Positions 259 through 1,292 of a stretch of 1,716 nucleotides of DNA are shown in pieces (the stretch's first letter is position 1; each line of letters starts with the position of its first letter). Source of the DNA: Enterobacteria phage P2-EC45; sequence record AJ512679.1. One strand, written 5' to 3'. The notes beneath the pieces were generated by a model, which worked only from the letters and a program-made list of their open reading frames with translations, ran no database searches and was not told where the DNA came from. Both the position numbers and the translations under genes were made by a program.

Positions 259-771
259 ATGCTAAGCAAAAAAGAAAAAACAGACAAGACAGAAACTAAT
301 TCGGATAAAAAAATAGGTGTCAAAGATAAAGTAAACTGGCTTTTGTGTGGAACTATTCTGATCATGATTGCGTCATTCTGTCTTTATTTATATAAATTCC
401 ATTCACCTTTATCTAACAATCATACAAAGTGGGGAGAGTTTGGCTCATATTTTGGTGGTGTCACCGGCCCATTAGTAAGTGTAATGGCATTTATCGGACT
501 GCTCAAATCAATTAGTTTGACAAAAAAACAATTTGAAATACAAAGTCAAGAGAGTACTTTCTTTAATCTACTTACCTTTCATACTTCTAAAGTTACAAAA
601 ATATATTCTGAGACATATGGGGAGACTGATGCCTTTAAATATCTCTGTGCAAAATATAATGAAGTATATGAGTCTAGATGCATTGCCATAGCATTGGATG
701 GTATTGCAAGAAATCAACAAAACTTGCCAGAATATACGTACTATAATTTCATAAGGTATTTTTTGCCTTAG
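259..771 (+). CDS. Membrane-anchored N-terminal half of a candidate abortive-infection-like defense protein (170 aa as written; probably residues 1-169 of a ~344-aa product)
   Basis: ATG with a good SD. The N-terminus is Lys-rich (positive-inside). There are two hydrophobic segments, about residues 27-45 (WLLCGTILIMIASFCLYLY) and 61-85 (FGSYFGGVTGPLVSVMAFIGLL), predicting an N-in/C-in helical hairpin. The ORF is AT-rich and sits in a prophage cargo position. It ends at TAG 769-771, within or just after a T6G slippery tract. Confidence 0.6.
   Translation: MLSKKEKTDKTETNSDKKIGVKDKVNWLLCGTILIMIASFCLYLYKFHSPLSNNHTKWGEFGSYFGGVTGPLVSVMAFIGLLKSISLTKKQFEIQSQESTFFNLLTFHTSKVTKIYSETYGETDAFKYLCAKYNEVYESRCIAIALDGIARNQQNLPEYTYYNFIRYFLP
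759..765 (+). other. In-phase X_XXY_YYZ slippery heptamer T_TTT_TTG: candidate -1 frameshift site, or site of a 1-nt homopolymer indel
   Basis: ORF1 codons are taT (757-759), TTT (760-762) and TTG (763-765). The ORF2 reading frame is open from 747 and is the -1 frame relative to ORF1. A -1 slip here, or restoring a seventh T, gives one continuous 344-codon ORF ending at 1292. Confidence 0.45.
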
Positions 772-779
772 ATGATAAC

Positions 780-1292
780 GTGACTGTCAAAGAGATAAAA
801 TCACGGTATTCACAATATCTGGAAGAATTTGATAATAAGCAGTCAATTCTCAACGAAATAAACTTAAAGAGAAGGAATATTAAAGATCATGGTAAATTCA
901 TATTGATTGAAATAGGCCGTGATCTGGTAAGGGATATGAGTGCTGAAGAGAGAGTCAAGGTTTTAAGAAATACGTTTGATGGGTTTTATGACGAATTAGG
1001 GCATGTGTCAGGCTCATATATTAGAAATATTTACTATATACTTTCTCATGCGAATGAGTCTATTAATGGTGATAAATATGCAAAAATATTTAGAGCTCAG
1101 TTATCTCGTTATGAATTGGTCATAATTTTTCTAAATATGTTAAGTAGTTACTGCAAGCCGGACTTTGTTTACCTCATCAAGAAATTTGATATATTAAATG
1201 GACTATATATTAATGATCTATGTTACAATCCAACTAGCGAAATGTATAAAGATGATCTTAAAGATATTTACCTACATTCAGATGAAGTGTAA
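780..1292 (+). CDS. C-terminal soluble half of the same candidate defense protein (drawn as a separate 170-aa ORF; its frame is open from 747)
   Basis: The start is GTG with no recognisable SD within 20 nt. It begins 8 nt after the ORF1 stop, in the -1 frame. It has no hydrophobic segments, shares the AT-rich composition of ORF1, and ends in three consecutive stops, TAA TAA TAG (1290-1298). Confidence 0.55.
   Translation: MTVKEIKSRYSQYLEEFDNKQSILNEINLKRRNIKDHGKFILIEIGRDLVRDMSAEERVKVLRNTFDGFYDELGHVSGSYIRNIYYILSHANESINGDKYAKIFRAQLSRYELVIIFLNMLSSYCKPDFVYLIKKFDILNGLYINDLCYNPTSEMYKDDLKDIYLHSDEV

Follow-up and report, generated by a model that had tools for sequence, protein, structure and literature searches.

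The split open reading frame in the Z region of prophage P2-EC45 is most probably a single putative abortive-infection gene that lost one base of a T-run

Two open reading frames of identical length follow each other closely in the sequence record of Enterobacteria phage P2-EC45 (AJ512679.1), of which we analyzed a stretch of 1,716 nucleotides, hereafter called the window. The locus raises the question of whether these frames represent two translationally coupled genes, one gene that is expressed by means of a programmed -1 frameshift, or one gene that was interrupted by mutation or by a homopolymer error. All features reported here lie on the plus strand and positions are those of the window. 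ORF1 (259-771) begins with ATG, encodes 170 amino acids and terminates at TAG 769-771 after an out-of-frame end (...LP). ORF2 (780-1,292) is a mechanically called frame with a GTG start that also encodes 170 amino acids. In the ORF list of the window, ORF2 follows ORF1 after a gap of 8 nt in the -1 frame, which is open from position 747, after TAA 744-746, and overlaps the frame of ORF1 across 747-771. Within this overlap, a run of six T residues (T6, 759-764) followed by G forms the heptamer T_TTT_TTG (759-765), phased with ORF1 as TA[T TTT TTG], the X_XXY_YYZ pattern. Either a -1 slip or one added T restores a single 344-codon reading frame, and the two resulting products differ solely at residue 169, which is L after the slip and F after the addition. 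The layout of the two frames, the phase of the heptamer and the effect of a slip or a seventh T had all been described in a first-pass annotation and were confirmed when we checked the sequence. The same annotation had noted that ORF2 lacks a Shine-Dalgarno sequence and has only a GTG start, which also held: the best duplex with the anti-Shine-Dalgarno sequence is +0.4 kcal/mol for ORF2, compared to -4.2 kcal/mol for ORF1, where a Shine-Dalgarno-like AGGA (247-250) is located 7 nt 5' of ATG 259, and -6.1 kcal/mol for the tail sheath gene FI. Independent initiation of ORF2 was rejected, as no Shine-Dalgarno sequence precedes GTG 780.

The genomic surroundings were readily recognized. The window opens with the 3' end of the tail fiber assembly gene G (1-30; the annotated coding sequence ends at position 3030 of loci L001 and L002, equivalent to window position 30) and closes with the 5' end of FI, the gene for the tail sheath (1,687-1,716, MSDYHHGVQV...; position 4688 of L001 corresponds to window position 1,687 after a 1-nt offset). 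An alignment to AJ512685 ("Bacteriophage P2-EC67 proviral Z-region") covers only positions 1-105, at 80% identity, and 1,561-1,716, at 96.8%. Similarly, matches in approximately 1,650 genomes of E. coli and in 81 phage records are limited to the flanks, with different genes in between. On the basis of these alignments, the segment from about 106 to 1,560 is cargo of the variable Z region, the intergenic hotspot between G and FI. The Z region of P2-like phages is known to be variable and has been surveyed in ECOR strains (Nilsson et al. 2004, cited in PMC9122126). G+C content is 0.31 in the gene and 0.53 in FI.

Several further observations were made at the edges of the cargo. The block upstream of and into FI (1,556/1,561-1,716) is conserved at approximately 96% among P2-like phages and includes, upstream of FI, a GC hairpin that resembles a terminator and is succeeded by a run of T residues (1,566-1,580, CGGGCGAATTGCCCG); it presumably separates the late operon of FI from the cargo. 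Between the stop codon of the gene and this block are approximately 270 nt of AT-rich sequence (1,293-1,560) without a long open reading frame, which could be a remnant of an earlier cargo. At the other side, positions 71-110 match the reverse complement of the "right inverted repeat" of P2-EC67 (AJ512685, 1248-1287) at 80% identity. A right-hand copy of the repeat was not found within the window, nor were inverted repeats of at least 14 nt, and a search of Rfam returned no match in the window.

We proceeded to determine what the interrupted gene may encode. Taken as a whole, the disrupted gene spans 259-1,292 and belongs to the putAbiC family; its intact alleles measure 1,035 nt and encode 344 amino acids. 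The Pfam family PF16872 (putAbiC, gathering cutoff 22) matches the joined protein with 46.1 bits and ORF2 alone with 48.0 bits, the domain being located inside the 176 C-terminal codons that continue in the -1 frame (765-1,292). The PADLOC model for AbiC (PDLC02343) gave no hit to the full-length protein at E <= 0.01 and a weak hit to the C-terminal half (E = 0.0045, 14.6 bits). The protein has no match in NCBIfam, and matches in PHROGs were limited to families of unknown function. An AlphaFold2 model was built on an intact protein that is 99% identical (P0001) and reached a mean pLDDT of 82.6. The model is all-alpha, with helices 21-47, 55-118, 125-151 and 158-168 in the N-terminal part, and hydropathy peaks near residues 33-38 and 73-76 fall within helices 21-47 and 55-118. 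These two N-terminal hydrophobic helices are probably membrane helices, followed in the predicted structure by a helical soluble domain, of which ORF1 retains the first helices. A Foldseek search of the model against the PDB found nothing below E = 0.5.

This architecture resembles the published description of AbiC, which consists of two N-terminal transmembrane helices and a helical extra-membrane domain (PMC13064643). With its size of about 344 aa, its pair of hydrophobic helices at the N-terminus and a soluble helical part that lacks a recognisable enzymatic fold, the protein agrees with what is described for lactococcal AbiC of the AbiC/P group (PMC13064643), whose abortive-infection phenotype consists of less phage capsid protein and fewer plaques. 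Lactococcal AbiC is, however, only distantly related to the protein studied here, which comes from a Gram-negative host. We refer to the gene as a putative AbiC-like abortive-infection (anti-phage) gene. According to the model, the frame break at residue 169/170 falls directly after helix 158-168 of what would be one continuous helical protein, and not between domains.

The strongest indication of the origin of the split came from other copies of the same DNA. The complete genomes of E. coli A5 (from a pig) and SW07099 (from wastewater in Galapagos) carry the entire window as 1,717 bp. Over 1,716 bases they show one difference, seven T residues (T7) in place of T6 at 759-764, and zero other substitutions. 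In both strains the gene is a single coding sequence of 1,035 nt, annotated as "putative phage abortive infection protein" (WP_072658907.1, 344 aa) and flanked, as in the window, by the genes for tail fiber assembly and the tail sheath. Whereas T7 leaves this coding sequence intact, T6 splits it into the two 170-codon frames. T7 was found in loci L001, L002 and L004. A third length was present in Logan contig ERR13910449 (L011), which has eight T residues (T8) at its positions 791-798 and is otherwise identical to the window over 1,619 bp; here ORF1 becomes a frame of 172 amino acids (...RYFFCLR*) and the same ORF2 is now in the +1 frame.

Intact alleles are by far the more frequent. The intact 344-aa protein P0030 is encoded on 62 contigs, and the count rises to at least 82 when further intact variants of 344 aa from its 90% cluster are included, so that out-of-frame alleles make up 2 of approximately 84 observed. 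The 170-aa product of ORF1, including its frameshift-specific end (...RYFLP), is identical to CAD54899.1 (UniRef100_Q858S6), annotated as "putative lysogenic conversion protein" of Enterobacteria phage P2-EC45. None of the contigs in the assembly collection encodes this T6-specific product, which is known solely from CAD54899.1. Neither the exact T6 pattern nor a pattern allowing T6 or T7 had a match in the viral_contigs or metagenome_contigs collections. The lack of any substitution other than in the T-run relative to the T7 allele shows that the split is either very recent or artefactual. Furthermore, T6 and T8 deviate in opposite directions from the majority T7, which points to random slippage, biological or technical, and not to a -1 design.

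More distant relatives agree with this picture. A homology search returned 29 relatives ranging from 99% to approximately 25% identity, all of them with PF16872 and none present as a split pair. Full-length homologues are 332-406 amino acids long with both halves covered. Short homologues were considered as natural split versions and rejected, as they sit on contigs of less than 5 kb. In a codon-level alignment of the site in ten loci, TAT TTT TTT is in frame in the copies from E. coli, Raoultella (88% identity) and Morganella (83%), and the site reads CAT TTT TTC in Yersinia (60%), ATA TTA TTA in L007 (62%) and GGT CTG ATA in Vibrio (52%). The two-frame layout occurs in none of the aligned relatives and the T-run is absent from those at 50-62% identity. 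The comparison with homologues that the first-pass annotation had suggested therefore yielded single uninterrupted reading frames with a different sequence at the site, the outcome that speaks for an indel or an error.

The relatives also differ in their mobile surroundings. Among the loci with differing contexts, L005 and L006 (Morganella), L007, L008 and L009 (Yersinia) and L010 (Vibrio), the gene is found beside a resolvase and umuDC-like genes, beside a TIR-domain protein and an integrase, or beside an IS110 transposase. These differing contexts indicate that the gene is mobile by itself, as a module of one gene, and that its range extends far outside P2 prophages.

Judging from these sequence comparisons, a single 344-codon AbiC-like gene has very likely lost one T of its T7 run through mutation or sequencing error, and the break would not be a programmed frameshift. 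The readings of a pseudogene, of a homopolymer error and of a missing seventh T, all raised by the first-pass annotation, are supported by the T7 run that restores one 344-aa reading frame in otherwise identical DNA. Shortening T7 to T6 in TAT TTT TTT GCC would shift the frame after codon 168. The shifted frame would then stop at TAG 769-771 and strand the C-terminal 176 codons in the -1 frame. Whenever an in-frame T7 that precedes a G loses one base, an in-phase heptamer arises of itself, homopolymers being both indel-prone places and look-alikes of slippery sites. Removing one T from TAT TTT TTT GCC leaves TA[T TTT TTG] CC, so the in-phase heptamer can be read as a by-product of the deletion, and its coincidence with the frame break as a consequence of the T lost from T7. 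Some findings count against the loss of one base. The heptamer is truly in phase and the same as the genuine P2 E/E' site, so that some slippage is plausible, only a small fraction of codon shuffles place such a heptamer so close to the end of ORF1, and a true pseudogene would be somewhat unexpected in a P2 hotspot (see below).

The occurrence of T6, T7 and T8 on otherwise identical DNA could alternatively mean that the locus is phase-variable, the T-run toggling a potentially toxic abi gene between ON (T7) and OFF (T6 or T8) through slipped-strand mispairing, or that it contains a "savior indel", perhaps with a leaky rescue by low-level frameshifting at T6. Retention of T7 in relatives at 83-99% identity fits such a switch, and for the thymidine kinase of a herpesvirus it has been described that frameshifting compensates for an indel in a run of 7 nt (PMC5009743). 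We nevertheless regard this reading as very unlikely. The out-of-frame alleles are few (2 of approximately 84) and each of them may stem from an error in sequencing or assembly. The two A7 runs of the gene show no length variation. T7 itself follows from Tyr-Phe-Phe codons at 31% G+C and is lost in relatives at 50-62% identity. Typical phase-variable homopolymers are longer than seven bases, and the 7-nt tract is below that length. There is likewise little probability that T7 acts as a low-grade mutational switch of a costly gene, in which T6 and T8 would be real, recurrent OFF states and trace -1 slippage at T6 would maintain a sub-toxic amount of full-length AbiC-like protein.

The first-pass annotation had also proposed a programmed -1 frameshift, in which slippage on T_TTT_TTG would set the ratio of a 19-kDa N-terminal protein to a 40-kDa fusion as in P2 E/E'. 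Its statement on the E/E' heptamer was correct: in the prophage of E. coli A5 (L001), gene E (start 6466) has an in-phase GG[T TTT TTG] (6714-6720), and the piece annotated as E' ("GpE family", 6738-6893) is in the -1 frame. ORF1 therefore shares T_TTT_TTG in the identical phase with a programmed frameshift of the same prophage type, and the overlap of the frames across 747-771 and the want of a Shine-Dalgarno sequence and an ATG for ORF2 would also suit recoding. The resemblance ends with conservation. While the two-frame layout of E/E' is annotated in the P2-like prophages examined, the T6 split is confined to one allele and the frame is uninterrupted in its relatives. In other genomes the otherwise identical DNA has T7 and one reading frame, no homologue is two-framed, and conservation of the site ends at approximately 83% identity. 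Moreover, the T8 allele would need a +1 shift.

The heptamer taken by itself is unremarkable for a gene of 31% G+C. ORF1 contains two in-phase X_XXY_YYZ heptamers compared to a mean of 1.96 in codon shuffles, and 7.4% of the shuffles place a heptamer within the last 8 codons. A second in-phase slippery-like heptamer, A_AAA_AAA, is found at 522-528 (positions 264-270 of the coding sequence in L001-L007), where it codes for the conserved KK of TKKQFEIQ; this A7 run is kept even in a relative of 62% identity, without any observed variation in length.

Signals that would stimulate a shift were searched for around T_TTT_TTG. The fold of the RNA downstream (766-865) is no more stable than expected from shuffling (z = -0.98), being equalled or surpassed by 34 of 200 shuffles, and a stimulatory hairpin was rejected on this basis. 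The sole Shine-Dalgarno-like element near the heptamer is AAGG (753-756), just 2 nt upstream. Judging from the dnaX and prfB sites, -1 shifting is stimulated by a Shine-Dalgarno sequence approximately 10-14 nt upstream. In a systematic survey in E. coli, the efficient heptamers comprised the classes V_VV.A_AA.R and H_HH.U_UU.Y and a few others, U_UU.U_UU.G not being listed, and the tetramer U_UUG, even when it was combined with the pseudoknot of IS3, gave just 1.8-3.6 times background (PMC4066793). The same study reports that U7 and A7 runs are under-represented, possibly owing to their proneness to indels and transcriptional slippage (PMC4066793). Given that U_UU.U_UU.G falls outside the efficient motifs and that U_UUG is weak, any rescue of T6 should be at trace level. 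Taken together, a programmed frameshift is highly improbable, as neither the heptamer nor the two-frame layout is conserved among homologues that are single reading frames.

A functional split gene, in which ORF1 as the membrane part and ORF2 as the putAbiC domain assemble and ORF2 is produced by termination-reinitiation at GTG 780, is scarcely credible, for although the 8-nt gap between stop and GTG permits some reinitiation and ORF2 alone retains its Pfam score, no split homologue was found (all homologues being single reading frames, which also removes support from the translationally coupled pair considered by the first-pass annotation), ORF2 has no Shine-Dalgarno sequence, the break comes straight behind a helix inside one continuous helical protein, and there has been zero sequence divergence since the split.

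Under the favored explanation, the loss of one T from an intact gene, ORF1 would amount to a membrane stub whose domain is incomplete, and ORF2 to an untethered C-terminal piece without translation signals. The split copy is thus probably inactive or nearly so. Full-length protein would be made from T6 in trace amounts at most, by spontaneous -1 slippage on T_TTT_TTG. The missing T may be a real mutation of the ECOR-45 prophage or an artefact of PCR, cloning or sequencing in a record of the early 2000s. In a recent survey of P2 hotspots, recognisable defence genes rarely occurred as pseudogenes and made up approximately 2% of the pseudogenes (PMC13586616). A true pseudogene would for this reason be somewhat unexpected, and an artefact is slightly favored. 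A potentially toxic Abi gene may also be the kind of insert that gains frameshifts when cloned.

The gene family is already annotated, the prophage hotspot has been described and the sequence is in GenBank. What the comparison changes is the reading of the P2-EC45 record, as the "putative lysogenic conversion protein" frames of this Z region would be the two halves of one AbiC-like defence gene, and the pair calls for annotation as a frameshifted or disrupted copy. In more general terms, a one-base indel within a homopolymer that is in frame can be expected to leave an in-phase slippery heptamer at the break between two reading frames, and such a heptamer should not lead to a claim of recoding unless comparisons support it. 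Should the T6 allele be real, it would be among the reportedly rare recognisable defence pseudogenes of P2 hotspots (PMC13586616).
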